A DNA stretch of 48,853 bases from a bacterium (GTDB lineage Bacteria > Patescibacteriota > Patescibacteriia > Patescibacteriales > GWC2-42-12): contig JAURWF010000062.1 of NCBI GenBank assembly GCA_030655095.1, forward strand, positions 1-48,853, given 5' to 3'. Both the position numbers and the translations under genes were made by a program. The notes below the pieces were generated by a model. That model was not told the origin of the DNA and made no database searches. It saw only the letters and a list, made by a program, of their open reading frames with translations. Shown here piece by piece: positions 22,658 through 44,439 of the stretch; the stretch's first letter is position 1, and each line of letters starts with the position of its first letter.

Positions 22658-22667
22658 GAGGTGTCAG

Positions 22668-23450
22668 ATGATGATTAAGGTAATAGTAAATGGAGCTGGA
22701 GGGAGTATGGGGAGGCTAATTAGTAAATATCTGTATCCTCAAAATGATATGGATTTAGTAGATGTAGTCGATCCAAAGGGTGGTACTTTGTTACTCAAGA
22801 CAATTAAAGCATCTGTTAAAGATGCGGTTGAAAACAATTGTTGCGACTTAATAGTGGATTTCACCCAGCCTAATGCTGTAAACGCAAATGCCGAGCTTTA
22901 CTGCAAGTACAATATTCCATTTGTAATGGGCACCACTGGCGGAGACAGGGAAAAACTGGCGCAAGTTGTTAAGGACAGCAATGTTTCGGCAGTTATTGCT
23001 CCAAATATGGCAAAGCAAGTTGTAGCCTTTCAGTCCATGATGGAATATGCTGCCGAAACTTTTCCCAACGCTTTTGAAGGATTTTCCTTGGAAATTGTGG
23101 AAAGTCATCAGGAGAGTAAAAAGGATACCAGCGGTACAGCTAAAGCCATGGTGGGTTATTTTAATAAGCTGAGTATTCCTTTTGATCCAGGTCAAATTGA
23201 AATGATCCGAGATCCTGAGGCGCAAAGAGCGATGGGTATTCCTGAAGAAGATCTTGGCGGACATGGTTGGCACACTTACGATTTAGTTTCTGCTGACGAA
23301 ACGGTAAACCTGAAGTTTACGCACAATATCAACGGTCGAGTCCCATATGTTCTCGGCACGCTTGATGCCATTCGATTTCTATATAAAAAGATTCAGGAGG
23401 GATCAAAAGGAGAGGTATTTTCTATGATAGATGTCTTAAAAGGCATTTGA
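22668..23450 (+). CDS. dapB: 4-hydroxy-tetrahydrodipicolinate reductase
   Basis: VNGAGGSMGR Rossmann motif and ESHQESKKDTSGTAKA (compare the E-x-HH-x-x-K-x-D-A-P-S-G-T-A signature). AGGAGG at 22656-22661. Confidence 0.7.
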   Translation: MMIKVIVNGAGGSMGRLISKYLYPQNDMDLVDVVDPKGGTLLLKTIKASVKDAVENNCCDLIVDFTQPNAVNANAELYCKYNIPFVMGTTGGDREKLAQVVKDSNVSAVIAPNMAKQVVAFQSMMEYAAETFPNAFEGFSLEIVESHQESKKDTSGTAKAMVGYFNKLSIPFDPGQIEMIRDPEAQRAMGIPEEDLGGHGWHTYDLVSADETVNLKFTHNINGRVPYVLGTLDAIRFLYKKIQEGSKGEVFSMIDVLKGI

Positions 23451-23476: not shown

Positions 23477-23526
23477 GACAGGGGAGAAAATGGAAAAAAT
23501 TTTCCAACCCCTGTCCTTTTTTATTT
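23477..23526 (+). terminator. Rho-independent terminator after dapB
   Basis: gacagggg (23477-23484) pairs with cccctgtc (23508-23515). A T-rich run ctttttttattt follows. Confidence 0.8.
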
Positions 23527-23608
23527 AAATTCAATGAATAATAATTAAATTTTTAAAATTTGCTTTTTAAGTTAATAGTTGTTATGATAATAATCACTTA
23601 GAAAAGAG

Positions 23609-23645: not shown

Positions 23646-23658
23646 GACAGTGTTGTTT

Positions 23659-23785
23659 GACTTTTTTGATTTTATAGACTTTACAGACTTTTGACTTTTT
23701 TGACTTTACAGACTTTATAGACTTTACAGACTTTACAGACTTTTGACTTTTGACTTTTGACTTTACGGACTTTATGGACTTTTAA
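23659..23785. repeat. Array A: about 14 tandem GACTTT-cored words (7-9 nt period), ending 9 nt before the lepB ATG
   Basis: Units start at 23659, 23677, 23686, 23693, 23702, 23711, 23720, 23729, 23738, 23745, 23752, 23759, 23768 and 23777. Forms are gactttaca, gactttata, gactttt and gactttacg. Confidence 0.9.
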
Positions 23786-23794
23786 CTAATCCCT

Positions 23795-24358
23795 ATGCTT
23801 AAAAATTTTTTTGTTTTTGTTTTTGAATTGACAAAAGTTGTTCTTATTTCTTTAGCTATTATTATTCCTATTAGATATTTTTTAATTCAGCCATTTTATG
23901 TCAAAGGAGCTTCTATGGAGCCTAATTTTCATGATAGTGAATATTTAATTATCGATGAAATTAGTTATCGTTTTAATCAGCCAAAGAGAGGTGATATAAT
24001 AGTTTTTAAATATCCACGCAATCCGCAGGAATATTTTATTAAAAGAATTGTTGGTTTACCAAATGAAAAAGTACAAGTAAGAGATGGCGAAATTTATATT
24101 TTTAATAAAGAAAATCCATTAGGCATTAAGATAGATGAACCATATTTAGCTGATGGAGTAAAAACTAACGGATCTGACGAAGAGGTTATTAGTTTAAAAA
24201 ATGATGAATATTATGTTCTTGGCGATAATAGAAATTTTTCCAAAGATTCCCGTAGTTTTGGTCCTGTAAATAAAAGTTTTGTTGTTGGTAGAGTGTTATT
24301 GCGTGGCTGGCCGTTTGATAAAGTGAATTTATTTCCTGTTCAGCAATATAGTTTTTAG
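23795..24358 (+). CDS. lepB: Signal peptidase I
   Basis: N-terminal transmembrane helix, GASMEPNF (catalytic Ser), KRIVGLPNE (catalytic Lys) and GDNRNFSKDSR. Confidence 0.9.
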   Translation: MLKNFFVFVFELTKVVLISLAIIIPIRYFLIQPFYVKGASMEPNFHDSEYLIIDEISYRFNQPKRGDIIVFKYPRNPQEYFIKRIVGLPNEKVQVRDGEIYIFNKENPLGIKIDEPYLADGVKTNGSDEEVISLKNDEYYVLGDNRNFSKDSRSFGPVNKSFVVGRVLLRGWPFDKVNLFPVQQYSF

Positions 24359-24430
24359 TTAAAAGTCTATAAAGTCTATAAAGTCTGTAAAGTCCGTAAA
24401 GTTAAAAGTTAAAAGTTAAAAGTTTATAAA
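24359..24430. repeat. Array B: the same word family in reverse-complement orientation (AAAGTC/AAAGTT units)
   Basis: gttaaaagtc tataaagtc tataaagtc tgtaaagtc cgtaaagt taaaagt taaaagt taaaagt. Its reverse complement mirrors the 3' half of array A. Confidence 0.9.
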
Positions 24431-27656: not shown

Positions 27657-27735
27657 AATAATGCGAATAATATTTGTAGTTTATTAATCGGTTATGTTAT
27701 AATAATGTTATTATAAAATAGTGCATTAGTCAAAG

Positions 27736-27763
27736 GACTTTACAGACTTTATAGACTTTTAAC
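27736..27763. repeat. Array C: three GACTTT words ending 7 nt before the ATG of the 560-aa surface protein
   Basis: gactttaca gactttata gacttttaac. The terminal gacttttaac box is the same as at the end of array A. Confidence 0.85.
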
Positions 27764-27770
27764 TTTTTCT

Positions 27771-29453
27771 ATGTTTAATAAATTTAGTAAAAAAAATCAT
27801 AAGATAATTATTGCTTTATTGCTTTATTGCTTTATTGCTTTTTTGTTTATTTTGATTACCCCAAATGTTTTAGCAGCAACAATTGATCCTGGACTAGAAC
27901 AGATGACAGCAACGGGTTTGTCTGATCAAGACATAAGAATAACAATCGCAAATATTATTAGGGCTGTTATTGGGTTTTTAGGAATTATTGCTGTTGGATT
28001 AGTTTTGTATGCTGGTTGGCTGTGGATGACTAGCGAGGGAGAGGAAGATAAAGTTGAGAAAGCTAAATTAATTTTGAAAAATGCTTTAATTGGTTTAATT
28101 ATTATTTTATCATCTTTTGCTATTGTATCTTTTATTTTAAATAAATTAATTGAATCAACTGCTGGTGGCGGTGGTAGTGTTGGAGGCGGACCAGGCGGTG
28201 GTGTAAGTGGCGGGATTGCTGCTTTGGGTAGTGGAATTATTGAATTTCATTATCCTGGCAAAGATCAAAAAGCTGTGCCACGAAATACTAATATATCTAT
28301 TACTTTTAAAGAGGCAATTAATCCTGCTGCTATCATAACTAATAATAAAATAAATACTAGTAATATTAAAATTTATAAAACAAAAGACGGCTTAACTGGC
28401 TCAATGGTTACTGATGTTAATGCTAGCAAAAGTGCAGATAATAAAACTTTTATTTTTGACCCTTCTCAATTTTTAGGTAGCTCTGCTGAAAATTTTTGGT
28501 ACACAGTGGCTTTATCAAAAGATATAAAAACAACAAGAGATGTGTTTGCTTTTGGTGTATTGTCGGGGTTGTTTCCTTATAGTTGGAGCTTTGAAGTAAG
28601 TACTATTGTTGACGAAACTCCGCCAAAAATTGAAAGTATTATTCCTCAACCTAGCGCTACTGAGCCTAGAAATGTTGTTATTCAGATTAATTTTGACGAA
28701 GCTATTAATTCGATGTCAGCTAGTGGCGCGACTAAAAAGGGTTTTAATAATATTGTAGTTAGCGCTTCTTCCACCGGCAATGCTAGCAGTTTAGTCGCAG
28801 GTAATTTTTATTTGTCTAACCAATATAGAACAGTTGAATTTCTTACAGAAGATAAATGTGGGGTTAATTCTTGCGGTTTAGATGTTTATTGTTTGCCTGG
28901 CAATAAAGATATATCTGTTTTAGTTAAAGCAGATGATCCTACGACCTCTCTTTACAATGGAATAGTTGATATGTCTGATAATTCTTTAGACGGTAATAAA
29001 GATGGCGTTGTGCAAGGTCCAACAGCAGATAATTATGCTTGGTTATTTAAGACTAGTAATGACATTGATACTTCTCCGCCAGTAATTACTAAAGTAAATC
29101 CAAATATAAATTCTGACGGAGCAGGTTTAAGCGCTACAGTTGAAGCTGAATTTAATAAATTAATGATGGCTAATAGTTTAAATAGCGATAGTCTTAATTT
29201 GGTTGGCACGCCAGTTATAAATTATTGGATTAGCAAGACTGATGATGCAAGCACTAGTAAAACTACTGTTATTTTTAATCACGATCAATTTAATGAGGAT
29301 AGTAGGTATTCTCCAAAAATTACTTCTGCCGTGAAAGACGTTTACCAAAATTGTTATTTTCCATGTTCAGGCGTAAATGAGACTGGTTCAAATGTACAAG
29401 GCGGTCCGTCTTGTTGTAACGGCGTGGCTAATTTAGGAGCTGTTTGCCCGTGA
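27771..29453 (+). CDS. Secreted/membrane-anchored protein: signal peptide, TrbC/VirB2-like (T4SS-pilin-like) two-helix hairpin, Gly linker, Ig-like (SbsA_Ig/Big-type) domains, Cys-rich tail
   Basis: Residues about 50-128 (IANIIRAVIGFLGIIAVGLVLYAGWLWMTSEGEEDKVEKAKLILKNALIGLIIILSSFAI) form the pilin-like hairpin. GGGGSVGGGPGGGVSGG follows. Repeated P-P-x-I-x-x-x-x-P ... F-x-E-x-(I/M) Ig-type starts are present. Confidence 0.7.
   Translation: MFNKFSKKNHKIIIALLLYCFIAFLFILITPNVLAATIDPGLEQMTATGLSDQDIRITIANIIRAVIGFLGIIAVGLVLYAGWLWMTSEGEEDKVEKAKLILKNALIGLIIILSSFAIVSFILNKLIESTAGGGGSVGGGPGGGVSGGIAALGSGIIEFHYPGKDQKAVPRNTNISITFKEAINPAAIITNNKINTSNIKIYKTKDGLTGSMVTDVNASKSADNKTFIFDPSQFLGSSAENFWYTVALSKDIKTTRDVFAFGVLSGLFPYSWSFEVSTIVDETPPKIESIIPQPSATEPRNVVIQINFDEAINSMSASGATKKGFNNIVVSASSTGNASSLVAGNFYLSNQYRTVEFLTEDKCGVNSCGLDVYCLPGNKDISVLVKADDPTTSLYNGIVDMSDNSLDGNKDGVVQGPTADNYAWLFKTSNDIDTSPPVITKVNPNINSDGAGLSATVEAEFNKLMMANSLNSDSLNLVGTPVINYWISKTDDASTSKTTVIFNHDQFNEDSRYSPKITSAVKDVYQNCYFPCSGVNETGSNVQGGPSCCNGVANLGAVCP
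27810..27841 (+). repeat. Perfect tandem repeat (attgcttt) x4 inside the signal-peptide coding region
   Basis: Copies lie at 27810-17, 27818-25, 27826-33 and 27834-41. The unit length of 8 nt is not a multiple of 3. Confidence 0.95.
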
Positions 29454-30398: not shown

Positions 30399-32105
30399 AT
30401 GAAAAAAGCAATTTTTTTATTATCGTTGGTGTTAATTTTAAGTGTGGGATTTTTTTCAACAACAACGCAAATTTTTGCTGAAAGTTTATCTAATAAATTA
30501 AAAGGGAAAATATTATTGCAAGTGGAATCAAGAGGCGAGGCTTGGTATGTTTCTCCTGCTGATGGAAAAAGATATAGTATGGGCAAGCCAAAAGATGCTT
30601 TTGATTTAATACGCAAATTAGGAATTGGCATTAGCAATGATAATTTAAAGAAAATCCAAATAGCAGATGAAAATTTAGTTGGTCTTGATAGTGATAACGA
30701 TGGTCTTTCTGATATGGCGGAAGATTCAATCGGGACAGATAAAAATAATAAAGACAGTGACGGAGATGGATATGATGATAAAAAAGAAGTAATAAATGGA
30801 TATAATCCTATCGGAGCTGGTAAAATATTAATTGATAGTAAGCTCGCTAAACAACAATCAGGAAAAATATTATTACAAGTGGAATCAAAAGGCGAGGCTT
30901 GGTATGTAAATCCGAAGAATAATCAAAGAATTTTTTTAGGCAGACCTACTGATGCTTTTAATTTAATGCGCAAATTAGGTTTGGGTATTTCTAATAATGA
31001 TTTAAGTAAAATTGTTATCCAGTCTAATGCGATAATAGTGCATTCAATTGGTATAAAAGAAGCAAAGATACGGGCAGAAAAGTTTATTAATGAAAAGTTA
31101 TTGTCATCTAATGTAACAGCTACTATTAAAAGTATTGTCTTAGAAGGTGGTTTATATAAAATTATTCTAGAAGTAGGGAATAGTGAATATACTTCTTATA
31201 TGACTAGTGATGGTAAAAAATTTTTTCAAGCAGGTACTGATTTAATTAAAGAAAAGCCTATAGAAATAAACGATTTAGATGTTTGTGATAAGATGCAGGA
31301 TCAAAGTAAAAAATATGAATGTTATTATGAAATTGCTATAGATAAACAAGATTCATCTATTTGTGATAAAATACAGAATCAAGATGATAAAGGCGAATGT
31401 TATTCTTATATTGCGGAAGCTAAACAAGATTTAACTATTTGTGATAAAATACAGAATCAAGATGATAAAGATATGTGTTATTATACAATTGTTATTATTA
31501 AACGAGATTTAGCAGGTTGTGGTAAGATACAAAGTCAAATAATTAAAGGAGGATGTTATACTAGCATAGCTGTAGTTGGGCAGGATTGTGATGAAATACA
31601 GAATCAAGATGATAAAGATATGTGTTATATGGCATATTATGGAAAAGATGTTGCTGAAAATAAAGCTAGAGATGCAAAACGTATTAGCGATATTAAACAA
31701 ATACAGACAGGCTTAGAACTATATTATAATGATATGAGTACATATCCAAACGCTACAAAAATTATTATAAAAGATCTCTGTTTGTCTGCAAACAAGGATT
31801 TAATAACAGGTAATGGATTTTATTCTTCTTGTGTTACTGGCGGTATAAAATATATGAGTCAAGTTCCAACAGCGCCATTGCCAGTTGATGGCAGTTGTAC
31901 TGCTGATAATAACCAATATATTTATCTTTCAACTAATGAAGAAGGTACCGTCATTTGTAAAACTGGAACACAACAAGCTCAATGTCAAAATTATATGTTG
32001 CAATTTTGTACAGGCGAATCTAATGGTTTAATTTCTGCAGGCTTGCATTGCGCCACTTCTAGCGGTATTTCAAATAAGGCATGTTCTTTTCCTGTTATTA
32101 AATAA
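30399..32105 (+). CDS. Secreted chimeric repeat protein (2x unknown ~50-aa domain, TSP3-like Ca-binding repeats, 5x C-x-K-I-Q-N-Q-D-D-K-x-x-C-Y repeats, C-terminal type IV pilin-like globular domain)
   Basis: Signal peptide MKKAIFLLSLVLILSVGFF. KILLQVES(R/K)GEAWYV occurs twice. DSDNDGLSD...DSDGDGYDD is present. ARDAKRISDIKQIQTGLELYYND resembles the end of the pilin alpha1 helix, but there is no prepilin leader. Confidence 0.65.
   Translation: MKKAIFLLSLVLILSVGFFSTTTQIFAESLSNKLKGKILLQVESRGEAWYVSPADGKRYSMGKPKDAFDLIRKLGIGISNDNLKKIQIADENLVGLDSDNDGLSDMAEDSIGTDKNNKDSDGDGYDDKKEVINGYNPIGAGKILIDSKLAKQQSGKILLQVESKGEAWYVNPKNNQRIFLGRPTDAFNLMRKLGLGISNNDLSKIVIQSNAIIVHSIGIKEAKIRAEKFINEKLLSSNVTATIKSIVLEGGLYKIILEVGNSEYTSYMTSDGKKFFQAGTDLIKEKPIEINDLDVCDKMQDQSKKYECYYEIAIDKQDSSICDKIQNQDDKGECYSYIAEAKQDLTICDKIQNQDDKDMCYYTIVIIKRDLAGCGKIQSQIIKGGCYTSIAVVGQDCDEIQNQDDKDMCYMAYYGKDVAENKARDAKRISDIKQIQTGLELYYNDMSTYPNATKIIIKDLCLSANKDLITGNGFYSSCVTGGIKYMSQVPTAPLPVDGSCTADNNQYIYLSTNEEGTVICKTGTQQAQCQNYMLQFCTGESNGLISAGLHCATSSGISNKACSFPVIK
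31362..31628 (+). repeat. Near-identical intragenic DNA repeats (31-42 nt) encoding the CDKIQNQDDK modules
   Basis: tgtgat(a/g)aaatacagaatcaagatgataaag starts at 31362, 31440 and 31587. Copies 2 and 3 extend to 42 nt with one mismatch. Confidence 0.9.
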
Positions 32106-33015: not shown

Positions 33016-36000
33016 ATGAAAAAAATAATTAAAAAAATATTAATTTTCTTTTGTTCGCTGATAGTTATAATGACAATGGCTCATTTTGCTTTGGCTTTGG
33101 ATCTTGGCATACAATATGGTGAAGCTACTGGATTGGGGCAAGAAGATCCTCGTATTATTGCTGCTAATATTATTAGAATCTTTTTTGGGTTTTTAGGAAT
33201 TATCGCTGTAGGTTTGATAATATATGCAGGTTGGTTGTATATGACTGCTGGCGGAGAAGAAGATAAAGTTGAAAAAGCTAAAAAGATTTTAATGGGAGCT
33301 GTTATCGGTATTATTATTTGCTTGGCGTCTTTTGCTATTGCTAGTTTTATTTTAAATAAATTATTAGATGCTACTGGCGCTGGCGGAGGGAGCGTAAATA
33401 CTGGCGGAGGTGGTGGAGGAATTGGCGGTGGCGGAGTAGGAGCGGCTTGTTATGTTGGGGGCACTGCTAGTAATTGCATTATCGCGAGCTCTACTTGTGA
33501 TATAATAGGATTAGTTTGTGATGCCACTACTTGCAAGTGTAAAAGCTCTGGTTTGCCAGGAGTAGACGAGGCTTGTTTAACAGATGCTTTGGACACAGAT
33601 TGTTCAGCTGGCATTTGTGCAACAGGATTGACTTGCAATAGTAGTGATTGTAAATGTAAAGAAACTAATTTGCCAAGTGCAGGTCAAAATTGTGATGCTG
33701 ATACTGGTCTTGCTGGTTGTCAGGCGACTGATTGTTCAAATAATTTAGTTTGTTCGGCAGACAATAGTTGCACTTGCGTCAAAACACCTTTGATTGCTTG
33801 GATAAGTCCTCTTGATGCTTCTAGTACGCCGAACGGGGCACCAGGAAATTTTATTACTATTGGCGGTCAATATTTTGGGACTTCTACTGGACAAGTGATT
33901 TTTCTTGGGGATACTAGCACTTCAACTGATGATAAAATCGCAACTTTTCCTAATCAAGTTAATTCTCAATGTACTAATTTTTGGCAAGACAATCAGATAA
34001 TTGTAGTAGTGCCTGTTGGCGCTACTACAGGTCCGATTAAAGTCCTTGACTCTACTAATCTTTGGGATACAACTGATAATAATCGCGGTCCTGCTATTAA
34101 TGATTTTACAATAAATAATATCAAACGACCTGGTTTGTGTTTAGTTAATCCAAATGTTGGTTCTTTTGATAACCTTATTGCTTTTTATGGGGTTAATCTT
34201 AATGGAATTAATGAAAAAGCTTTTTTTGGTAATAAAACTAACAATATATTGGCTAATGCTAGAGATTGGTCAAGAGTTTTAGTGCCTAATATTCAAGATG
34301 GTAGAACTTCAGTTTTTGCAACGGTTATATCAGGGAATACAAATTCAGCAGGCAGTACTTTACCCGCAGAAGATTCTAATAGTTTAGGATTTACAGTTAA
34401 AAATAATATTCAAGATAATCCATTTATTGATTATCTTACTCCGATAGAAGGACCAAAAGGTCGGTATATTACTATTTATGGGCGTAATTTTAAAAATTTT
34501 GATTCAGGGAAAAGTGTAGTAAAATTTTATTTGCCAACTGATCCAAATACAAAAATTAATGCCGGAGTAGATTTTCCAATACAGTGTCAAGGTAAATATT
34601 GGAATGATACTTATATTACAATTAAGGTTCCACAAGTAGCACCTCCTGGAGATTATAAGGTAATAGTAATTAATGAAAATAGTAGCACTAGCACTCCAGC
34701 AAATTTTAAAATTACAACAGGTAGTCCTAGTCCAGGTCTTTGTTTATTAGATCCATACAATGGTCCTGTCGGTCAATCTATTAATGCTTATGGTGAATAT
34801 TTTGGTGCTAGTCAAGGAGCTAATGGTCGCGCTGTTTTTTATAATAATGCTTCTAGCTCTCCTACTAGTTGGGCTGATCAAGCGATTAAGACTAATGTGC
34901 CTAGCGGAGCGCAAACAGGACCTTTTAAAATAATTAATAATCAAGTTGGCAATGCGTTGCCTTTTAAAGTTGGCGCTTGCGTTGCTAATACCGATTGTTT
35001 AAATAGTAGTACTGAAGAATGTTGTCCCAGCGGTACTTATAATGCAGGAATTTGTAAAACAGAAGGTGAATGTTCTTTAGGCGGGCCACAAAGTTGTACT
35101 TTTGGTTGGACTTTTTCTACTGCATTAGGAACAAGTACTCCTCTAACTTGCGGTGGTTATAGCGCAGCTAGCGCTTGCTCAGCTGTTGGTATGTGTCCTA
35201 ATGCTCGTGGTGAATGCCAAAGTAGAACTAATATTGAGACAGGATATTGCAGTGATAATAAGTGTAATGAAATCGCTAGCTCCAGTTGCGCTAGTCAGTG
35301 CGCTTATGATAAAGTTTTAAACAAATGTAAATTACTAGGTAAAGTTTGCGATGTGAAAGATACGACTTTAGTTGCCGGATTTACTGCTGAATGTCGTAAA
35401 GTAGGAGCTAAAAATATTTGGCAGATTAACACAAAAGACGCTTCTTGTCCGAATGGGGCTTCTTCACCTATTAATGGTTGGTGTTCTGTTGGCGATTTAG
35501 GCTTTCCGATTGAATGCGTCTCGTCTTCATGTCCAGCAGGTCTTACTTGCCAATCAGGGCAATGCGTAATTTCGTCTTCAGGATGTTCAAATGGATCTTT
35601 TTGCGGTATTGGTGGTAAATGTATAAAAGGATATGGGGTTGGGAGAGAAGATAGTGTTTGCGAATGTTGTTGTCGTGTAGCTAATAGCGCTCAAGATTGT
35701 TGCGCTGGTTTGACTTGCAAAGCAGGTGGTTGTGGTGTTGGCGCGCCAGATTATGGTTTATGTACTGGCTGTAAAGTAATAATTAATGGACAGGTTAACC
35801 AATCTTTAAGTGATCAAACTTGTAATTGCACAGGAAAGACTACTAGATATTGCGATTTAACAGATTTAGCTAATCCATCTGGTGTTTGTAAAGATCAAGC
35901 AGTTGCTGGTCAGAATTGTTATGTTGGTGGTGTTGCTGGTGCTTGCACGGCAAGTTCTACTTGCGCTAGTAGTCTTAGTTGTAATCGAGCGACTTGTAAA

Positions 36001-38457
36001 TGTGAAACAATAAATAATCAATGTGCATCTAATCAAACAGTGTGTAGTTCTTCTTGTTGCACCCAGGGTGAAAGTTGTGATGTTAATGGTAATAGTGGGC
36101 GAGGAAAATGTGGTGATACTTTATGTCAAGGAGCTACTTGTGGCGGTAATTGTTGTGTAGGCGCGACTAGTTGTGCTAGCGGAGCTTGTCCATCAGTCGC
36201 TGGTGCAGCTTGTTATGTTGGTGGTGGTGTCGGCGCTTGTAATATTGCAAGCTCTACTTGCGCTAGTAATCTTAGTTGCAATACAACAAATTGTACTTGT
36301 GAGTCATCCATTTCTTTTCCTCAATTTGGTCAAACTTGCGCTAAAAAAGCAACAACTACAGTAACTTGTGATATTGGTGTTTGCACAGGTTTTTCTTGTT
36401 TAAATGCAACTAGCAGTAGCCCTTTAGCACCATCAAGCTTAGTATCGTGTGGCACTTGTTGTTGTGATCCGACTCTTTCTGCGACTAATGATCAATGTAA
36501 AATCGTTAATCCTAAATTATCTTGTTTAAAAAATAAAGGTAATTGTAGTGGAAGCGGTCGCGGACTTTGTTGTGGCTGTGTTAGAGATGATGAATGTGGT
36601 AATTCTTCTACCGCTGGTTGTAGTAATGATACTTGTTGTAGCGCTAGACCTAGAGTCAATGCACTTACAACCCCAACCAATAATGAAACAGGTGTTTGTC
36701 GCAATACTGTGATAGAAGCAACTTTTGATCAGATTATGGATATTACTAGTTTTAATAATAATATGTTTTTAATTGGTGATTATGGTGCTGATTTATGCCC
36801 TACAGGCACTAAATTTTTAGGAGAAAATATTAGCAAAAAAAGTAATAATATTTTTACAAGAGCTATTAAAAGAATTTTAATTTCTTTAGGAAAAATATTA
36901 AAGCCGATTTTAAGTGAAAAAGTATTAGCAGCAATTAATAGTGCTCATACTTATTGCTTAATCAATGGCGCAATTGGTGGTTATAATGGCGTTGCCAGTA
37001 CAACTGTTATTACTTTTGCTTTGCAAAAAGCTCTTGATGCTGAGCGTGAATATTCTGTTATTATTCAAGGTGATGCTTCTACTACAGATAGTGTTAAAGA
37101 AGGAGTTTTAGGTATTTCTGGCGTAAGTATGAAAGGCACTTCTACTGAAACAATTAATGCTAAAACTTTTACTAATTCTAAAATTTGGTCATTTACTACT
37201 AGCAAAAATATTTGTCAGATAGATAGTGTAATTATTGATCCAATTAGTTATTTATTTCAGACTAGCGAGAATAATCCAGCTGATGATGATTCAGCAACTT
37301 CTACATACGACACAATAAATGATAGTGATAAAGTTTATCGCGCCAAGGCTTTAGCTCTTGATGGCCAGGAAATTTTACCTATTAATAATGTTTATAGCTG
37401 GAATTGGGATTGGACTATTGATAATAAGGAAATAGTAGATTTTAAAAATTTAAATAATACCAATCAACAGACTTTAGTTGCTCAAAATAAAAAAGATGGA
37501 AAAACTGTTGTGTATGCTAAAGCTATTATTACTGACGACAAAGTTATTAAACCGTCTACTGTTAATAAATTTAAAATTGGCAAAGCCAATGTTTATGTTT
37601 TAATGTGCGCTAATCCTTGGCCACCTATTAATAACAGTAATACTTGGTTGCCATGGCGTGATACGTCAGGTAATTGTAGTGCAGGTTTAAGCGGAACGGA
37701 TTGTTTTAATAATAATTTTGAATTTTATTATTGTCGTGATGCTGGTCAAGTAGGCACTGCTGATGATTTGCCAGCAATTTTAAAAGACACAACAGTTATT
37801 AGAGGCAATTATGGAGATCCTAATCCTTTGAAAGAATATTATTTTTTACGCGAGGATGTACCATCTATTACCGTCCTTTCAGTTTATGATCAAAGAAATA
37901 GTGGTAAAGTTGTCGCGGTATGGGAAGCTGTTAATGGAGCATCAGGTTATAAATTGTATTATGGTAAAGACAAAGGTCAATATGATAATTCCGTTGATGT
38001 AAATAATGTAGTTCCTGATGTGAATAATAAAATTTCAAGTCCAGTAATAGGTTTAATTAATAATCAGACTTATTATTTTGCTGTTTCAGCTTATTATAAA
38101 TCAACTGGAGCAGAAAGTATTTATTCTAATGAGGTCAGCATAATTCCGACTGACACTTCTGCGCCATCCGTGCCTACTGGTTTAATTGCTTCTTCAACAA
38201 ATCAAAAAGTAGAATTAACTTGGATAAAAGGCAGTGATGATGTTAATTATTATCGAGCTTTCTATGGCACAGCGAGAGGAGTTTATGGAGCTGAATCTGT
38301 TAAAGTTAGTTTAGCTGATAGTTGTTCAGCGACAATGTGCAAACTTATATTTGAGAATTTGGTTAATAATACAAATTATTATTTTGCAATAAAAGCGTTT
38401 GACGAGTATAATAATGGCAGTGTTGTTAGCGTTGAAGTTAGTGCTATGACGCAATAA
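33016..38457 (+). CDS. Giant (1813 aa) pilin-hairpin-anchored, cysteine-rich surface protein with IPT/TIG, Ig-like and two C-terminal FN3 domains
   Basis: A signal peptide is followed by a hairpin paralogous to that of 27771 (nt about 33127-33366). A poly-Gly linker follows. C-Y-V-G-G...C...S-S-T-C...L-x-C...C-x-C modules lie at 33445-33545, 35911-36006 and 36205-36303. IPT-like ITIGGQYFG, ITIYGRNF and INAYGEYFG are present. FN3-like W-x-x-V-x-G-A-S-G-Y-K-L-Y-Y and YYFA motifs lie at the C-terminus. Confidence 0.85.
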   Translation: MKKIIKKILIFFCSLIVIMTMAHFALALDLGIQYGEATGLGQEDPRIIAANIIRIFFGFLGIIAVGLIIYAGWLYMTAGGEEDKVEKAKKILMGAVIGIIICLASFAIASFILNKLLDATGAGGGSVNTGGGGGGIGGGGVGAACYVGGTASNCIIASSTCDIIGLVCDATTCKCKSSGLPGVDEACLTDALDTDCSAGICATGLTCNSSDCKCKETNLPSAGQNCDADTGLAGCQATDCSNNLVCSADNSCTCVKTPLIAWISPLDASSTPNGAPGNFITIGGQYFGTSTGQVIFLGDTSTSTDDKIATFPNQVNSQCTNFWQDNQIIVVVPVGATTGPIKVLDSTNLWDTTDNNRGPAINDFTINNIKRPGLCLVNPNVGSFDNLIAFYGVNLNGINEKAFFGNKTNNILANARDWSRVLVPNIQDGRTSVFATVISGNTNSAGSTLPAEDSNSLGFTVKNNIQDNPFIDYLTPIEGPKGRYITIYGRNFKNFDSGKSVVKFYLPTDPNTKINAGVDFPIQCQGKYWNDTYITIKVPQVAPPGDYKVIVINENSSTSTPANFKITTGSPSPGLCLLDPYNGPVGQSINAYGEYFGASQGANGRAVFYNNASSSPTSWADQAIKTNVPSGAQTGPFKIINNQVGNALPFKVGACVANTDCLNSSTEECCPSGTYNAGICKTEGECSLGGPQSCTFGWTFSTALGTSTPLTCGGYSAASACSAVGMCPNARGECQSRTNIETGYCSDNKCNEIASSSCASQCAYDKVLNKCKLLGKVCDVKDTTLVAGFTAECRKVGAKNIWQINTKDASCPNGASSPINGWCSVGDLGFPIECVSSSCPAGLTCQSGQCVISSSGCSNGSFCGIGGKCIKGYGVGREDSVCECCCRVANSAQDCCAGLTCKAGGCGVGAPDYGLCTGCKVIINGQVNQSLSDQTCNCTGKTTRYCDLTDLANPSGVCKDQAVAGQNCYVGGVAGACTASSTCASSLSCNRATCKCETINNQCASNQTVCSSSCCTQGESCDVNGNSGRGKCGDTLCQGATCGGNCCVGATSCASGACPSVAGAACYVGGGVGACNIASSTCASNLSCNTTNCTCESSISFPQFGQTCAKKATTTVTCDIGVCTGFSCLNATSSSPLAPSSLVSCGTCCCDPTLSATNDQCKIVNPKLSCLKNKGNCSGSGRGLCCGCVRDDECGNSSTAGCSNDTCCSARPRVNALTTPTNNETGVCRNTVIEATFDQIMDITSFNNNMFLIGDYGADLCPTGTKFLGENISKKSNNIFTRAIKRILISLGKILKPILSEKVLAAINSAHTYCLINGAIGGYNGVASTTVITFALQKALDAEREYSVIIQGDASTTDSVKEGVLGISGVSMKGTSTETINAKTFTNSKIWSFTTSKNICQIDSVIIDPISYLFQTSENNPADDDSATSTYDTINDSDKVYRAKALALDGQEILPINNVYSWNWDWTIDNKEIVDFKNLNNTNQQTLVAQNKKDGKTVVYAKAIITDDKVIKPSTVNKFKIGKANVYVLMCANPWPPINNSNTWLPWRDTSGNCSAGLSGTDCFNNNFEFYYCRDAGQVGTADDLPAILKDTTVIRGNYGDPNPLKEYYFLREDVPSITVLSVYDQRNSGKVVAVWEAVNGASGYKLYYGKDKGQYDNSVDVNNVVPDVNNKISSPVIGLINNQTYYFAVSAYYKSTGAESIYSNEVSIIPTDTSAPSVPTGLIASSTNQKVELTWIKGSDDVNYYRAFYGTARGVYGAESVKVSLADSCSATMCKLIFENLVNNTNYYFAIKAFDEYNNGSVVSVEVSAMTQ

Positions 38458-38509
38458 TTTGTCTGAACCACTGACAGTTTCTGAGGGGCACTGAAAATAC
38501 TGAGAATTT

Positions 38510-38544
38510 CAAATACAAATACAAATTACAAATTACAAATTAAT
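38510..38544. repeat. Array E: tandem ACAAAT/TACAAAT words upstream of the 38570 gene
   Basis: caaatacaaatacaaattacaaattacaaatta. It is preceded by three (c/t)actga words at 38470-38506. Confidence 0.85.
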
Positions 38545-38569: not shown

Positions 38570-39322
38570 ATGTTTGATGAAATTAATGATCAGAATGTTA
38601 ATCAAGCGAATGTTCCTACTCCGGGGATTGGTTCTATGCCAAATTTTAATCAAAGTGTTCCTAAGTCTGCTGAAGATATTTTGGCAGGAGTTGATCAATC
38701 AGAAAAGCCAGCGGTTTTTCAACCTAAAGCGCCAACGCCATCAGTAGGCTATGTTCCAGAAAACGAGGAGTCAAAAACAACAGATTCTAAAAAGTTTTTT
38801 GTTTTAGGTGTTATAATCATTGTTATTATTTTAATTATTGGCGTTGGTTATTTGGGTATTAAATTTTATTTGAATTCTAAAATATCAGACAAAGCTTTGA
38901 ATAATAGCAGTAAAGTTGTTGAGCCTGTAGTTAGTCCTATTCCAGAAAATTCAGATATTATTAAAAATCCGATTGTTGAAGTTGAAACTTCAACAGCAAC
39001 ATCTACGGGCATTAATGGAAATTCAATTATTACAGCTACTACTACAATTATCGCCACAAACACAGATATGATTATTGAATCTACAACAATAGTTGATAGC
39101 GATCAAGATGGTTTAATTGATGAAGAAGAAAGATTATTAGGAACAGATCCAAATTCAAGTGATTCTGATAACGATGGGTTGTCTGATCGTGAGGAAGTAA
39201 AGACTTATAGCACAAATCCGTTAAATGCAGATACTGATAGCGATGGTTATCAAGATGGAGCAGAAGTAAAAAATGGCTATAATCCAAAGGGATCAGGAAA
39301 ACTAGAGGTTAAAAGTTTGTAG
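38570..39322 (+). CDS. Single-pass membrane protein with C-terminal thrombospondin-type-3-like Ca-binding repeats
   Basis: Transmembrane helix FFVLGVIIIVIILIIGVGYLGI. DSDQDGLIDEEE, DSDNDGLSDREE and DTDSDGYQDGAE repeats. The protein ends NGYNPKGSGKLEVKSL. Confidence 0.7.
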   Translation: MFDEINDQNVNQANVPTPGIGSMPNFNQSVPKSAEDILAGVDQSEKPAVFQPKAPTPSVGYVPENEESKTTDSKKFFVLGVIIIVIILIIGVGYLGIKFYLNSKISDKALNNSSKVVEPVVSPIPENSDIIKNPIVEVETSTATSTGINGNSIITATTTIIATNTDMIIESTTIVDSDQDGLIDEEERLLGTDPNSSDSDNDGLSDREEVKTYSTNPLNADTDSDGYQDGAEVKNGYNPKGSGKLEVKSL

Positions 39323-39357
39323 CCCTGACCCTGCCCTCTCCCATGTAAAATAATTTT

Positions 39358-40362
39358 ATGTTTAATATTTCTAAGCCAAAAATTAATAAAGAGATTGAGC
39401 AATTACCGGAGGATTTATCATCGGTTCAAGAAGAAGAAACAAAATTAGGTGATGATATAACTATTCATGCTATGCCAGAGCGTTTTCGTTCTAGTCATAT
39501 TAAAGTTGGTCAAGCTAAAAAAACAGGCGTTTTTATTATCGTTGCCGGTATTATTTTTTTAATTATTATTTCTGGCTTATTCTATTATTTTTTCTTTTAT
39601 AACCAATCTAAAAAATCAAATCAAGCATCTGTTGCAACTTCAACGCCTGCAGTAGAACCAGCTAAAATAGAAGTTCCAGTCAAAGAACCAGCGCAAATAG
39701 TTGCTACTACTACGGTTGTTTTGCCTAATATAGAGTCAATGGCTACTTCAACTGCTACTTCTACAGCAACTTCTACTGAAGATATTATTAATCAGCCAGT
39801 TGATTTGTCTGCTGGAATTGACAGCGATAGTGATGGGTTGACAGATAAAGAAGAAAAGATTTTTGGATCTAATCATACTGTTTTGGATTCTGATAATGAT
39901 GGTTATGATGATTTTTCAGAAGTTTTAAATGGATATAATCCAGCAGGGGCAGGAATTTTATCTATTAACAATAATTTACAAAATTATAATAATAAAACTT
40001 ATAAATATAATTTATTGTATCCATCAACTTGGAAGCAGACTACGAGTGGTGGAGATGATTCAATAGTATTTAAGGCAGAAGATGATAGTTTTATTCAAGT
40101 AATTGCTCAAAATAATAAAGAGCAGCAATTAATAAGTGATTGGTATAAACAGCAGTTTAATGTAGATTTTGTTGATCAAAATAATTTAATTACTAATAAT
40201 AACTGGAATGGAATTATTAATTCTGATAGCCTTACTACTTATTTAACGGATTCTAGTAAAAAGTATATTTTTGTTATTACTTATAATCCCGCCTCTTCAA
40301 ACACATTAAATTATCCCAATCTTTTTAAAGCAATGATTAAATCGTTCAAGATTAGTCCATAA
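39358..40362 (+). CDS. Single-pass membrane protein with TSP3-like repeats and a C-terminal domain of unknown function
   Basis: IHAMPERF motif, transmembrane helix VFIIVAGIIFLIIISGLFYYFFF, DSDSDGLTDKEE, DSDNDGYDDFSE and NGYNPAGAGIL. Confidence 0.7.
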   Translation: MFNISKPKINKEIEQLPEDLSSVQEEETKLGDDITIHAMPERFRSSHIKVGQAKKTGVFIIVAGIIFLIIISGLFYYFFFYNQSKKSNQASVATSTPAVEPAKIEVPVKEPAQIVATTTVVLPNIESMATSTATSTATSTEDIINQPVDLSAGIDSDSDGLTDKEEKIFGSNHTVLDSDNDGYDDFSEVLNGYNPAGAGILSINNNLQNYNNKTYKYNLLYPSTWKQTTSGGDDSIVFKAEDDSFIQVIAQNNKEQQLISDWYKQQFNVDFVDQNNLITNNNWNGIINSDSLTTYLTDSSKKYIFVITYNPASSNTLNYPNLFKAMIKSFKISP

Positions 40363-40610
40363 AGTCATTAGATAGTTAAAAGTCAAAAGTCCATAAAGTC
40401 ATTAGATAGTCGAAAGTCAAAAGTCCTTAAAGTCCTTAAAGTCATTTGATAGTCGAAAGTCAAAAGTCCATAAAGTCCATAAAGTCATTTGACTTTAAGG
40501 ACTTTACAGACTTTACAGACTTTACAGACTTTACAGACTTTACAGACTTTATAGACTTTACAGACTTTACAGACTTTTGACTTTATAGACTTTACAGACT
40601 TTATAGACTC
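40357..40610. repeat. Array D: about 250-bp head-to-head word array (12 AAAGTC units, centre at 40488/89, then 14 GACTTT units)
   Basis: The left arm (40357-40486) carries AAAGTC units with interspersed attagatagt/atttgatagt. The centre reads aaagtc-attt-gacttt. The right arm (40491-40610) has a mostly 9-nt period of gactttaca and ends 3 nt before the ybeY ATG. The stop codon of the upstream gene lies inside the first unit. Confidence 0.95.
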
Positions 40611-40613
40611 TTT

Positions 40614-41036
40614 ATGTTAGTTGAAGTTAATAATCAGACTAAAAAAAGAATAAATATATCTTTAGTTAAAAAAATAGCTGAATTATTTTTGCAAACTTAT
40701 CATTTTAATAACAAAGAAATTTCTTTGGCTTTTGTAAATGATCAAATTAGTAAAAAATTAAATAAAACTTATCGTGGCATAGATAAAGCAACTGATGTTT
40801 TATCTTTTTCTATGACCGATGTTGATAATGATAATTTTTTAGGTGAGATAATTATTAATTACGAGCAAATTAAAAGACAAGCAAAACAAGCCGGACATAA
40901 TATTCAACAAGAATTAATTTTTATTTTAGTCCACGGTTTGTTGCATCTGGCAGGTTATGATGATGCGACAGAAAAAGGCGCAGACGAGATGGATAAATTA
41001 GGAAAAAAATTTATAAATTTATGCCAAATATTTTAA
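40614..41036 (+). CDS. ybeY: rRNA maturation endoribonuclease YbeY
   Basis: HGLLHLAGYDD metal-binding motif. 140 aa. Confidence 0.85.
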   Translation: MLVEVNNQTKKRINISLVKKIAELFLQTYHFNNKEISLAFVNDQISKKLNKTYRGIDKATDVLSFSMTDVDNDNFLGEIIINYEQIKRQAKQAGHNIQQELIFILVHGLLHLAGYDDATEKGADEMDKLGKKFINLCQIF

Positions 41037-41596
41037 TTTTTGGAGACAGTATAGTTTATGGCGCATTTGACCCTGAAGCTGGTGGGTGGGCGGATAGATT
41101 AAAAGCTTTTTTCTTTAAAGATGGAAGAAACTATGATTATTTTGTTTATAATCTCGGTATTTCAGGAGATACAACAGAGAATTTATTAGAAAGATTTGAA
41201 TTTGAAACAAAACAAAGATCAGACGAAGACAAAACATCTTTTATTTTTAGCATCGGCATAAATGATTCTGCGTGGATGCATAGCAAAAATAATCACTGGG
41301 TTTTACCAAATAAATTTATTGATAATATTAAAAAATTAATACAACTTGCTCAAAAATTTTCTTCAAAAATTATTTTTGTTAGTTTATCACCAGTAGATGA
41401 AACAAAAACAACCCCAATTCCGTGGAACACAGACTTATCTTATAAAAATGAGTGGATTCAAGAATACAACAAAATTATAAAATCAATTTGCGAAGAAAAC
41501 AAAATTCTTTTTATTGATGTTTTTGAAAAATTTATAAAATTAGATTACACTAAATTATTAGAAGATGGTCTTCATCCAAATTCAAAAGGCCATTAG
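41021..41596 (+). CDS. SGNH/GDSL hydrolase
   Basis: IFGDSIVYG (block I Ser), GINDS (block III) and DGLHPN (block V Asp/His). It overlaps ybeY by 16 nt. Confidence 0.75.
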   Translation: MPNILIFGDSIVYGAFDPEAGGWADRLKAFFFKDGRNYDYFVYNLGISGDTTENLLERFEFETKQRSDEDKTSFIFSIGINDSAWMHSKNNHWVLPNKFIDNIKKLIQLAQKFSSKIIFVSLSPVDETKTTPIPWNTDLSYKNEWIQEYNKIIKSICEENKILFIDVFEKFIKLDYTKLLEDGLHPNSKGH

Positions 41597-41645
41597 AAAA
41601 TTTTTGAAATTGTAAAAGATTATTTTTAAATTTTAAATTTTAAAT

Positions 41646-42665
41646 ATGAAATTTGTTCGAACAAAAAAACTTTTGTTTGCTAATAATAAGGGTGGAGTTG
41701 GCAAGACTACATTGGCTTTTAATACCGCTGTTAAATTTTCAGAAATGGGATACAAAACTGTTTTAATAGATTTGGATCCACAGTGTAATTTGTCCAGATT
41801 AGCGTTAGGTTTATTTGAAGAAACATTATTTTCTAACAGTCAAAAAACAATTTACACTGTTTTGGAAGGAATCATTAAAGGAGGATCTGATATTGACAGA
41901 AGCGTAAGTTTTGAAAAAATAAATAACAATAACAATCTATTCATTTTGCCAGGTAGCCTTAAATTATCTCAATACGAAAATTCATTAATCTCATCTTATG
42001 GAGAAGCAGCACAAGGAGTTGAAAGAGGTTTTTTTATTACAAGCGCGATTGATAGATTTTTAACAGAAAAAGGCTTGAATGAAGAAATTGATATTTTTAT
42101 TATTGATACATCGCCAAGTCTTAATTTATTAAATAGAGTGATATTTTTAGGATCAGATTATTTTATCACGCCTTTAATGCCCGATGCTTTTTCAGTTCAA
42201 GGTATTGAAAATTTGGGAAATACTTTTGAGGAATGGAAAGATAATTGGAAAAAAACAGCGAGAGTTTTAGCAAAAGATAAAGGGATTGCGCATAATAAAG
42301 TTTTGGATGGCGAAGGCTTGTTTATAGGTTATATAATAAATTCGTATAATCAGTATTCAAAAAAACCTATTAAAAGTAATGAAGAATGGATTGCCAAAAT
42401 TCCGAGCTTTATTAAAAAATATTTATCAGAAAAACATTGCAGAAATGGACTCGTTGAAAAATCTTGGAAATTAGAGTTAGCTTTAATTAAAGATTTTGGG
42501 CAATTATCACCATTAGCGCAAATCAAAAATAAGGCAATATTTAATCTTGATCCAACTATCGATGGTTTTGAAAATATAAAAGGAACAAGGGAAAATTTAG
42601 AACAATCACAAAAAGAATTTACTCAACTTTCAGAAAAGATTTTAAAGATATTGTTAGAATATTAG
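41646..42665 (+). CDS. ParA/MinD-superfamily ATPase with long C-terminal extension, no ParB partner in the window
   Basis: Deviant Walker A NNKGGVGKTT and IIDTSPSLN (Walker B region). 339 aa. Confidence 0.7.
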   Translation: MKFVRTKKLLFANNKGGVGKTTLAFNTAVKFSEMGYKTVLIDLDPQCNLSRLALGLFEETLFSNSQKTIYTVLEGIIKGGSDIDRSVSFEKINNNNNLFILPGSLKLSQYENSLISSYGEAAQGVERGFFITSAIDRFLTEKGLNEEIDIFIIDTSPSLNLLNRVIFLGSDYFITPLMPDAFSVQGIENLGNTFEEWKDNWKKTARVLAKDKGIAHNKVLDGEGLFIGYIINSYNQYSKKPIKSNEEWIAKIPSFIKKYLSEKHCRNGLVEKSWKLELALIKDFGQLSPLAQIKNKAIFNLDPTIDGFENIKGTRENLEQSQKEFTQLSEKILKILLEY

Positions 42666-44367: not shown

Positions 44368-44439
44368 AGGTCTTGAAATATTTTTAATTGTAGTTTAATA
44401 TAAAATTAGTTAACTGATTAACTAATTAATTATCTATAT

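Follow-up and report, generated by a model that had tools for sequence, protein, structure and literature searches.

The DNA analysed here, a contig of 48,853 nucleotides (nt) referred to as the window, carries a spacer at 40357-40611 that lies between the stop codon of a membrane-protein gene and the ATG of ybeY. Read directly, this spacer consists of two opposed arrays of the word GACTTT. The features at the locus are as follows.

39358 to 40362, plus strand: upstream gene for a 334-aa membrane protein with a weak PsbP-like match; its stop codon lies inside the first array unit
40354 to 40488, minus strand: left arm, 12 exact AAAGTC words on the plus strand together with decayed gactat, aactat and gactaa
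40481 to 40496, no strand: dyad centre and tip of the predicted hairpin, AAAGTC-ATTT-GACTTT
40491 to 40611, plus strand: right arm, 13 exact GACTTT words and a terminal GACTCT; the ybeY ATG is 2 nt further on
40614 to 41036, plus strand: ybeY, endoribonuclease YbeY (Pfam PF02130, E = 1.4e-35)

By word count, exact AAAGTC occurred 12 times in 40361-40486 and exact GACTTT 13 times in 40491-40602, followed by a decayed GACTCT at 40606-40611, and the dyad centre at 40481-40496 read aaagtcATTTgacttt. A preliminary description of this DNA had listed 12 AAAGTC units, the same centre and 14 GACTTT units, and this inventory was confirmed, with the decayed word as the fourteenth. The right arm (40491-40609) was found by Tandem Repeats Finder (TRF) to have a period of 9 with 13.4 copies and 89% matches, and its linkers were ACA (seven times), ATA (three times, with another ATA preceding the terminal GACTCT), AAG (once) and T (once), giving a period of mostly 9 nt. 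In the left arm (40354-40492), where the linkers outward from the centre were ATG, AAG, T and C, TRF detected higher-order periods of 34 and 43 nt, matching the period of about 34 to 43 nt that had been described earlier. The source of this period was three copies of a module ending in ACTATCTAAT or ACTATCAAAT, present in the left arm only. Because the linker sets differ and the ACTATCTAAT module is confined to one side, the two arms are separate arrays and not mirror copies. The left arm also extends over the final two sense codons of the upstream gene (AGT CCA) and its stop codon TAA (40360-40362), so the earlier statement that the array starts inside the last codons of that gene was correct. 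No open reading frame (ORF) of at least 50 aa was found within the spacer, indicating that it is noncoding. Across the window, GACTTT occurred 71 times compared to 30.7 +/- 5.3 times in dinucleotide-preserving shuffles, none of 100 of which reached 71. The excess came entirely from four clusters (23659-23782, 24362-24394, 27736-27759 and 40357-40611), the last of which is the biggest, as had been claimed.

The gene order at this locus is shared with relatives whose YbeY is 81% or 73% identical: a large pilin-like gene, a 252-aa TSP3 gene, a gene of 332 to 335 aa, and ybeY. Orthologues of the upstream protein gave faint TSP3_bac matches. In the 73% relatives (L122-L124), the spacer between the upstream gene and ybeY is 3 nt long (TAAtttATG), which has no room for a terminator or promoter, and the junction was therefore ancestrally internal to an operon. 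In the 81% relatives (L117-L121, L125 and L127), the spacer is 53 nt long and opens with a different 7-nt array, GGAATTA/GGAAGTA, of 5.1 units in L117-L120 and 6.6 units in L121. The C terminus of the upstream protein is conserved to ...KSFK(I/V) and diverges thereafter, ending with SP* here (AGT CCA TAA, an array unit), with WN* in the 81% relatives (TGG AAT TAG, a unit of their own array) and with VK* in relatives without an array. Since the last two codons and the stop are array derived in each lineage, the arrays have remodelled the C terminus and supply the stop codon. These results indicated that the GACTTT array before ybeY is a lineage-specific expansion in a tiny ancestral junction. 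The array looks dispensable for ybeY, and the locus itself looks to be of modest importance. Among the functions proposed in the preliminary description, a replication-slippage hot spot was the best supported, given a spacer of 3 nt or of 53 nt with another word in relatives and copy number differences both between near-identical relatives (5.1 versus 6.6 units) and between paralogous GACTTT arrays of a single locus, L066 (6 versus 16 units).

The spacer belongs to a known class, the intergenic long simple-sequence repeats, and is not a new kind of element. Such repeats, with units of 5 to 11 nt, are sporadic in bacteria, are most commonly heptamers and are ascribed to polymerase slippage in the account of Mrazek et al. 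(2007) given in PMC4679880. Here, a head-to-tail unit in that size range is repeated far above chance, and the arrays touch the stop codon at 40360-40362 and end near the ATG at 40614. Turnover is evident from whole-unit copy differences and from absence in relatives with the same gene order, and sporadic distribution is evident from many carriers and many loci, with arrays of other words alongside.

Folded as RNA in silico, the whole spacer reached -93.7 to -94.2 kcal/mol compared to -44.1 +/- 4.2 kcal/mol for shuffles (z = -12.0), and folded as DNA it reached -52 kcal/mol (z = -10.9). As single RNAs the arms were essentially unstructured (left, -12.8 kcal/mol; right, -8.5 kcal/mol). The very long imperfect hairpin proposed in the preliminary description was thus reproduced, now with a computed free energy. 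At the predicted stem base, 40354-40357 pairs with 40606-40609, such that the stop codon at 40360-40362 falls within the base and the ybeY ATG lies 4 nt past it. The predicted stem is imperfect and AU rich, with about 125 positions per arm, and consists of helices of 6 to 8 bp separated by internal loops, with the U residues paired. Arm-to-arm complementarity is only about 72% because the 6-nt cores pair while the linkers mostly mismatch.

We favor, with moderate confidence, the interpretation that the spacer consists of two independent GACTTTA arrays in an intercistronic insert made by slippage, acting as a coupling stem. The arrays would have expanded in this lineage only, most likely via replication slippage or unequal exchange, growing within the ancestral 3-nt junction of the membrane-protein gene and ybeY until they stood back to back, with the 3' end of the GACTTT strand against each neighboring gene. 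The spacer would be transcribed within a polycistronic mRNA, in which the two arms could pair to form a stem, with the 250-nt insert looped out and the upstream stop codon brought beside the ybeY start. As modeled, the array is probably an intercistronic stem that holds these two codons next to each other. On reaching the stop codon of the upstream gene, a ribosome would open the base of the stem and so unmask the start of ybeY, and the stop-start coupling of the ancestral junction would thus outlast the insertion. Slower degradation by 3' exonucleases or reduced read-through are further effects that the stem could have. The hairpin would not be the reason for the existence of the arrays. Indeed, the comparative data suggest that the hairpin is incidental, a by-product of the use of one word by both independent arrays. 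The left and right arms represent different subfamilies of the repeat. In the 81% relatives, the next spacer upstream (L117:4864-4948 and L121:1695-1779) holds a post-stop AAAGTY array and then, directly before the start, a TTCCTAA array, and no hairpin is possible there because the two words are noncomplementary. This two-arm layout with noncomplementary words was counted in favor of the interpretation, as were the many arrays of other 7- to 9-nt words in carrier genomes and the lack, within the spacer, of a terminator consensus or of promoters above background.

The wider family was collected by an exact scan for GACTTTAYAGACTTTAYAGACTTT, limited to one genome per species, which returned at least 112 stretches; the assembly tallies that follow are counts of record titles among the matches listed. 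On this basis, arrays are present in at least 64 assemblies, comprising 29 from the candidate phyla radiation (CPR)/Patescibacteria, 27 Bacteroidota, 3 metagenome-assembled genomes (MAGs) labelled Gammaproteobacteria, 1 Oscillatoria MAG and 4 unclassified records. The CPR carriers listed are Magasanik-, Morani-, Falkow-, Campbell-, Yonath-, Berkel-, Doudna-, Roizman- and Gottesmanbacteria, Paceibacteria, Saccharibacteria and Gracilibacteria, and one of them is the complete genome CP011215. The Bacteroidota carriers listed are mostly Bacteroidales and include Odoribacter sp. AF15-53, Leyella stercorea and Rikenella microfusus. Some carrier MAGs hold dozens of arrays, many at contig ends, with more than 20 loci in one Bacteroides MAG. 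Only 4 matches were obtained in 2.9 million viral contigs, and a phage origin was rejected. The comparison with relatives that had been suggested at the outset was accordingly divided in its outcome: none of this array was present at the orthologous spacer, and arrays were abundant at other spacers and in other phyla.

From the 112 arrays with at least four cores, 640 intercore segments were examined. They measured 3 nt in 456 cases (ACA, 218; ATA, 102; ATG, 62; ACG, 39; AAG, 21), 1 nt in 73 and 2 nt in 41, and about 70 of the 640 contained a decayed core. The unit is thus GACTTT-A-Y-R or a shortened form of it, 7 to 9 nt long, in which positions 1 to 7 are near-invariant and positions 8 and 9 and the unit length are variable; the invariance of the core is partly ascertained, since arrays were defined by exact cores, and that of position 7 mostly is not. 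The free mixture of 7-, 8- and 9-nt units rules out helical phasing, which weakens the earlier suggestion of a protein-binding platform with one unit per helical turn less 1.5 bp. Family arrays range from 3 to 21 units, the distal flanks are unrelated between copies of one genome, and the gene-proximal terminal motifs are genome specific (GACTATTAC in MAG SRP332253_co2_34 and TAACTAA in the window).

GACTTT is not alone at these loci. In the fetched loci, TRF found 385 arrays with a period of 6 to 10 and at least three copies, of which 158 were of the GACTTT type and 227 used other words, such as ATTGGTA, GTAAATG, GATTTGC, AGAAGTA, TATTGGTAG, ACCTATA and GACCGCAA, often as neighbors in one spacer. 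Some of the other-word arrays in carriers are very long (GACCGCAA x15.5 at L024:482-605, TTTACCA x24 at L059:2918-3101, GTAAATG x17 at L072:36-157 and GTGAAAGT x23 at L108:1328-1510), and some of these adjoin GACTTT arrays. In 120 kb of CPR-like loci chosen by a distant YbeY and not by arrays, there were 2.9 arrays per 10 kb and no GACTTT arrays. GACTTT is therefore one locally dominant word of a wider array habit, and its recurrence across phyla is partly a matter of ascertainment because the search used the GACTTT word. A vocabulary shared between CPR and Bacteroidota was considered and not adopted; an AAGAATT-like cluster comprised 17 arrays in 13 loci, a number that may be no more than chance.

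The other GACTTT arrays of the window are as follows.

23656 to 23787, plus strand: GACTTT x14 (exact words at 23659-23782), with its end 12 nt upstream of the signal peptidase ATG (gene 23795 to 24358)
24359 to 24430, minus strand: AAAGTC x4 and then AAAGTTA x4, beginning 3 nt past the signal peptidase stop and ending 16 nt before the hisS ATG
27736 to 27764, plus strand: GACTTT x3 and a decayed AACTTT, ending 6 nt short of the ATG that opens a pilin-like/Big_5 cluster

The array at 24359-24430 could pair with that at 23656 in a duplex of -81 kcal/mol. The three exact words at 27736-27759 end 11 nt before the first pilin-like/Big_5 surface-protein gene. Extended -10 boxes were seen by eye upstream of two arrays (TGtTATGAT at 23580-23588 for the 23656 array and TGtTATAAT at 27695-27703 for the 27736 array), which would place both arrays in 5' leaders; the boxes were unlisted by the promoter scan because their -35 hexamers are weak. 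The surface-protein cluster is delimited by the 27736 array at its start and the ybeY-proximal array (40361) at its end, and it includes a gene at 33016-38457 for a cysteine-rich secreted protein of 1,813 aa.

Arrays of this kind are prone to break assemblies, and we considered that the spacer might be a collapse, an expansion or a chimeric join produced by assembly in a low-complexity region. Many arrays do lie at contig ends in other MAGs, and the contigs with a close YbeY are short. However, the array is internal to a 48.9-kb contig, its linkers follow no uniform order, and exact repeats inside the spacer reach no more than 43 nt, so that a short-read assembly could have resolved it. Moreover, the flanking gene order matches that of relatives, and the architecture recurs in at least 64 independent assemblies, including CP011215 and isolates. 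An artefact is, on this evidence, scarcely credible.

The patchy distribution, with very high copy numbers in some genomes, and the genome-specific terminal motifs could also be those of a mobile or selfish repeat, similar to a miniature inverted-repeat transposable element (MITE) or a repetitive extragenic palindromic (REP) sequence, whose copies or ends insert at gene ends and are spread by an enzyme, possibly across phyla. In addition, array units replace last codons, and genes are bracketed by inverted arrays of one word: the 332-aa gene of the relatives has TTCCTAA upstream and its inverse downstream, paralleling the signal peptidase gene here, which is flanked by GACTTT and AAAGTC. Yet the arrays have no set length, and they lack terminal inverted repeats, target-site duplications and conserved distal flanks. 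No transposase-like ORF was noticed among the 10 window proteins scanned or seen in the window, and arrays are nearly absent from viral contigs (4 matches). A mobile repeat is therefore highly improbable, and identity with a REP, a bacterial interspersed mosaic element (BIME) or a MITE was rejected, the arrays being 3 to 21 units long and sharing only short gene-proximal motifs.

The placement of arrays relative to genes followed a definite polarity. Runs were oriented as GACTTT, and neighbors were taken as crude ORFs of at least 90 aa. On the 3' side, runs lay tightly against a gene: the distance to a convergent stop was -2 to +8 nt in 47 of 77 cases, and that to a co-oriented start was 11 to 30 nt in 22 of 53. 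The 5' side was loose. The last array unit was typically decayed and merged with the stop codon (TAAGTC or TAGTC). By a simple binomial, the polarity splits gave p values below 1e-3 to 1e-6, which overstate significance because arrays of the same genome are not independent. No general purine/pyrimidine strand rule emerged, since the trend for words other than GACTTT (66% versus 49% purine rich) was not significant (p = 0.19).

Several of these observations weigh against the coupling-stem interpretation. Arrays that do not fill their spacer adjoined a gene on the 3' side in 44 cases versus 8 on the 5' side, post-stop arrays were in the AAAGTC sense in 52 of 62 cases (84%), and adjacent opposite runs were ordered AAAGTC and then GACTTT in 21 cases versus 3 in reverse. 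All three reverse-order pairs fell within one higher-order tandem repeat of L105. (In that Bacteroidales MAG, at L105:4836-5352, a head-to-head module of AAAGTC x4 and then GACTTT x3-7 is itself repeated four times in tandem.) GACTTT-sense arrays also end 12 to 24 nt upstream of tRNA-Lys (L014), tRNA-Leu (L086) and tRNA-Val (L103), and an AAAGTC-sense array begins 13 nt past a transfer-messenger RNA (tmRNA) gene (L023). Because the same rule holds beside these RNA genes, seeding from stop codons alone cannot explain the polarity, although n is only 4. Arm lengths correlate across two-arm loci (Spearman 0.52, p = 0.016), which could mean that the hairpin is selected. A neutral insert of 250 nt is, moreover, surprising in a streamlined genome with a median spacer of about 25 nt. 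Finally, pure slippage leaves the invariant GACTTTA core (positions 1 to 7) and the strict polarity unexplained, and these leave room for a conserved single-strand-binding reader.

The preliminary description had also raised a bidirectional terminator or insulator, and a selected element of this kind, with U runs after the stem in both directions, might part the surface-protein cluster from a ybeY-ftsA-ftsZ cluster. The prevailing order of opposite runs (21 versus 3) would give a U-rich 3' flank on both strands, four two-arm loci lie flush between convergent stops, arm lengths correlate and the stem is very stable. Nevertheless, a consensus scan of 39000-42000 listed no terminator-like sites, the predicted stem is AU rich, is broken every 6 to 8 bp and keeps its U residues paired, and most family members are single arms without a hairpin. 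The two-arm layout is also found with noncomplementary words. In addition, a strong terminator would silence ybeY, because the junction is operon internal in relatives and there is no promoter between the stem and ybeY. This window does contain, at 23478-23526 after dapB, a canonical GC-rich hairpin followed by a T run (seen by eye and probably unlisted by the scan because its loop exceeds 8 nt), which shows that the organism uses ordinary intrinsic terminators. The flanks of two-arm loci (9 codirectional, 4 convergent and 2 divergent) were in ordinary spacer proportions, so the orientation of flanking genes did not single out a terminator role. A terminator function at this operon-internal junction is thus quite unlikely, and classification as a Rho-independent terminator, which would have a compact GC-rich stem of 5 to 20 bp, a loop of 3 to 8 nt and then an unpaired U tract, was rejected in view of the scan result, the AU-rich interrupted stem and the paired U residues.

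Promoter functions fared no better. Sigma-70-like promoters in the spacer were not above background (21 in the scanned region versus 18.2 +/- 4.3 expected). Self-contained promoter arrays were rejected, since TTTACA-16-TAGACT pairs are present at a background count and, by our calculation, a 9-nt register at no point puts a hexamer carrying A2 and T6 at a distance of 17 nt. No Rfam match at the gathering threshold and no tRNA gene was found in the whole window.

The near-invariant 7-nt core, with core spacing flexible by 0 to 2 nt, fits a flexible single strand and not a phased duplex. It raises the alternative that the arrays are multisite platforms for a conserved OB-fold single-strand binder of the cold-shock-domain or S1 type, with one protein per unit of 7 to 9 nt. 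The candidate target would be GACUUUA-sense RNA or single-stranded DNA, i.e., (GACUUUACA)n. Bound arrays upstream of genes might keep leaders unstructured and favor Shine-Dalgarno-independent translation or antitermination, and complementary arrays after genes might serve as pairing partners or antisites. The preferred heptanucleotide of Bacillus subtilis CspB is GTCTTTG/T, in which C is strongly favored at position 3 and positions 2, 4 and 6 are T (PMC1904285); as related in PMC4679880, CspB can fill consecutive heptamers with one protein each. GACTTT[A/T/C] resembles this optimum, GTCTTT[G/T], in sequence at positions 1, 3, 4, 5 and 6; position 2 is A here, whereas CspB prefers T. The recurrence of the word in at least 29 CPR and at least 27 Bacteroidota assemblies would suit a universally conserved reader, although this sharing across phyla is partly an artefact of the word search. 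The host seldom uses Shine-Dalgarno sequences, which are of the GGAGG type in only 3 of the 43 window genes and absent from ybeY, as from most window genes. The same candidate binders have been suggested for TAACTGA repeats (PMC4679880), and some other arrays of carriers are built of words containing ATTGG, which is the classical Y-box motif. However, pyrimidine-rich RNA would arise from one orientation only, yet 52 of 62 post-stop arrays would be transcribed as AAAGUC. Moreover, dozens of unrelated words per carrier are beyond one reader, and the orthologous ybeY leader works without any array. We consider such a reader unlikely, although it is the main rival interpretation and would explain the invariant core, the flexible spacing and the phyletic breadth.

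Extended further, this idea would make GACTTTA arrays a gene-boundary code spanning phyla, read unit by unit by a conserved OB-fold protein at the edges of transcription units, a proposal that we regard as doubtful. Its second element, a fixed polarity that also holds at tRNA and tmRNA genes in bacteria mostly without Shine-Dalgarno initiation (CPR and Bacteroidales), is doubtful to the same degree as a sign of such a code. If the code were real, the head-to-head form would be a protein-tunable RNA switch between neighboring cistrons.

Polarity tied to the gene boundary, whether start, stop or RNA gene, could alternatively reflect duplex DNA sites for a polar protein (a roadblock, boundary or nucleoid protein) or a cruciform, marking gene boundaries irrespective of direction. 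Tandem heptads that serve as regulator-binding sites are known, such as TTTTGAT at the Vibrio cholerae ctxAB promoter (bioRxiv 10.1101/2021.05.14.444153), and the DNA hairpin here is predicted to be stable (-52 kcal/mol, z = -10.9). Against this, the mixed spacing of 7, 8 and 9 bp ruins phasing, a footprint of 7 to 9 bp per site would be unusually small for a protein on duplex DNA, no candidate protein was identified, the many words would require many readers, and the array is absent in close relatives. Duplex recognition or cruciform extrusion is therefore very unlikely. A promoter-proximal array of the ctxAB type was likewise rejected, with only 2 to 12 nt from array to ATG and promoter-like sites at background.

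Further identities were examined and set aside. The arrays are not CRISPR arrays, whose repeats are 23 to 50 nt long with unique spacers, as the units here are 7 to 9 nt, contiguous and without spacers. Replication origins or iterons were rejected because the unit GACTTTACA matches the DnaA box TTATCCACA by eye at 4 of 9 positions, the cumulative GC skew rises monotonically through the region, the neighbors are a membrane-protein gene and ybeY, and there are many loci per genome. Complementarity to the 16S rRNA 3' region and likeness to boxA (NusB/S10) amounted to 5-nt overlaps found in rare linkers only, and mimicry of the tRNA-Lys anticodon loop (GACUUUUAA) was taken as coincidence. An exact-sequence search of the literature for array 15-mers found no paper.

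Several other features of the window and of the relatives were recorded. RACTRA words (similar to TAACTAA or TAACTGA) are about 4-fold denser upstream of starts than genome-wide, occur 9 times in sense versus once in antisense, and lie within 40 nt upstream of 8 of the 43 genes, for example, TTAACTGATTAACTAATTAA at 44404-44439 before the FtsZ-like gene at 44440. They may be an initiation-related motif in this Shine-Dalgarno-poor organism and recall the TAACTGA repeats of Beggiatoaceae and cyanobacteria. Strong GGAGG Shine-Dalgarno sequences occur only at three genes within 20170-23450, namely dapB, which starts at 22668, and the genes starting at 20170 and 21482. These genes lie in the GC-richest stretch (0.36 to 0.41 versus about 0.28 to 0.30 elsewhere), and this block may have been horizontally acquired. 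Spacer arrays of other words are present at 38505-38542 (AATTACA x5.7), 41624-41654 (TTTTAAA x4.4), 17326-17362 (TATACGAAT x4) and 17711-17756 (TATATTAG x5.4), and a C-rich CCCTGN x3 lies at 39325-39345, directly past the stop of gene 38570 to 39322. Within genes, an 8-nt array, TTATTGCT x5.6, occupies 27808-27851 in the 5' coding part of gene 27771 to 29453 (the pilin-like signal/transmembrane region), with a unit length not divisible by three even though it is inside an ORF. A 78-nt tandem repeat (x3.3, 73 to 82% matches) at 31282-31538 in gene 30399 to 32105 encodes a protein repeat of 26 residues. Downstream of ybeY in the 81% relatives, at L117:6480-6540 and at the contig ends of L118-L120, there is a palindrome with long C and G runs (cccccccccgcaacttgcgggggggg), and several contigs stop there.

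The family outweighs the locus in interest, in that ultrasmall CPR genomes with a median spacer of about 25 nt tolerate one-word arrays of 100 to 250 nt. A reader protein, if real, would open a way to study how translation is initiated or transcripts are punctuated where Shine-Dalgarno sequences are lacking, a question on which knowledge of Bacteroidetes and CPR has long been deficient. Should mutation and purifying selection alone be at work, the arrays are useful markers of slippage dynamics and are also a practical cause of assembly breaks in MAGs and of remodelled protein C termini. The cultured carriers (Odoribacter sp. AF15-53, Leyella stercorea and Rikenella microfusus) make experiments approachable.

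Among known systems, the REP and BIME sequences of enterobacteria are imperfect palindromes of 20 to 40 nt with a GTAG head and associated RAYT transposases, lie after stop codons, and form paired hairpins that can stabilize upstream mRNA. GACTTT arrays are like them in being high copy, extragenic, placed just past stops and often arranged as inverted, hairpin-forming pairs; unlike them, they are tandem arrays of a word of 6 to 7 nt with open-ended length, and no RAYT gene was seen in the window. The head-to-head array is like bidirectional terminators in being an intergenic dyad that, in the prevailing orientation, is preceded by A-rich and followed by U-rich sequence. It differs from them in its arms of about 125 positions, its interrupted stem and the lack of a compact GC-rich stem or a free U tract, and in the predominance of single arms in the family. 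The ctxAB TTTTGAT heptads are similarly tandem arrays upstream of a gene with variable copy number, in their case between strains; they lie upstream of a defined promoter and recruit known regulators on duplex DNA (bioRxiv 10.1101/2021.05.14.444153), whereas GACTTT arrays leave 2 to 12 nt before an ATG, also follow stops and flank tRNA genes. The GACTTT core, as a candidate 7-nt single-strand site, resembles CspB sites in that position 1 is G, position 3 is C and positions 4 to 6 are T, whereas position 2 is A here and preferably T for CspB.

The closest parallels are the heptamer repeats. In the cyanobacterium Nostoc, deletion of the heptamers upstream of recO is reported in a preprint to alter reporter activity, with no partner named (bioRxiv 10.1101/2022.06.06.494920). 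These heptamers and the long simple-sequence repeats of Mrazek et al. resemble GACTTT arrays as short-unit arrays over-represented in particular genomes and located near promoters or starts; the accounts of them available to us describe no polarity rule, no invariant core with a variable linker and no inverted pairing. TAACTGA heptamers occur in Beggiatoaceae, cyanobacteria and a few Bacteroidetes, mostly directed toward nearby starts and in a minority toward stops; in close relatives with the same neighboring genes the spacers are shorter and free of repeats, contigs end within the arrays, and the candidate readers put forward are S1, Csp and CsrA (MacGregor 2015; PMC4679880). The TAACTGA unit is a strict heptamer, whereas the GACTTT unit is a fixed core with 0 to 2 variable bases, and GACTTT arrays are mostly post-stop and antisense, in contrast to TAACTGA copies, which mostly point toward starts. 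Head-to-head GACTTT pairs form long predicted hairpins, compared to one inverted repeat reported for TAACTGA in BOGUAY (PMC4679880). The hosts differ as well, being CPR and Bacteroidales for GACTTT and marine Beggiatoaceae, cyanobacteria and some Bacteroidetes for TAACTGA. Both, nevertheless, are tandem arrays in spacers near starts, with mixed variant units, in Shine-Dalgarno-poor hosts and with a sporadic distribution across phyla.

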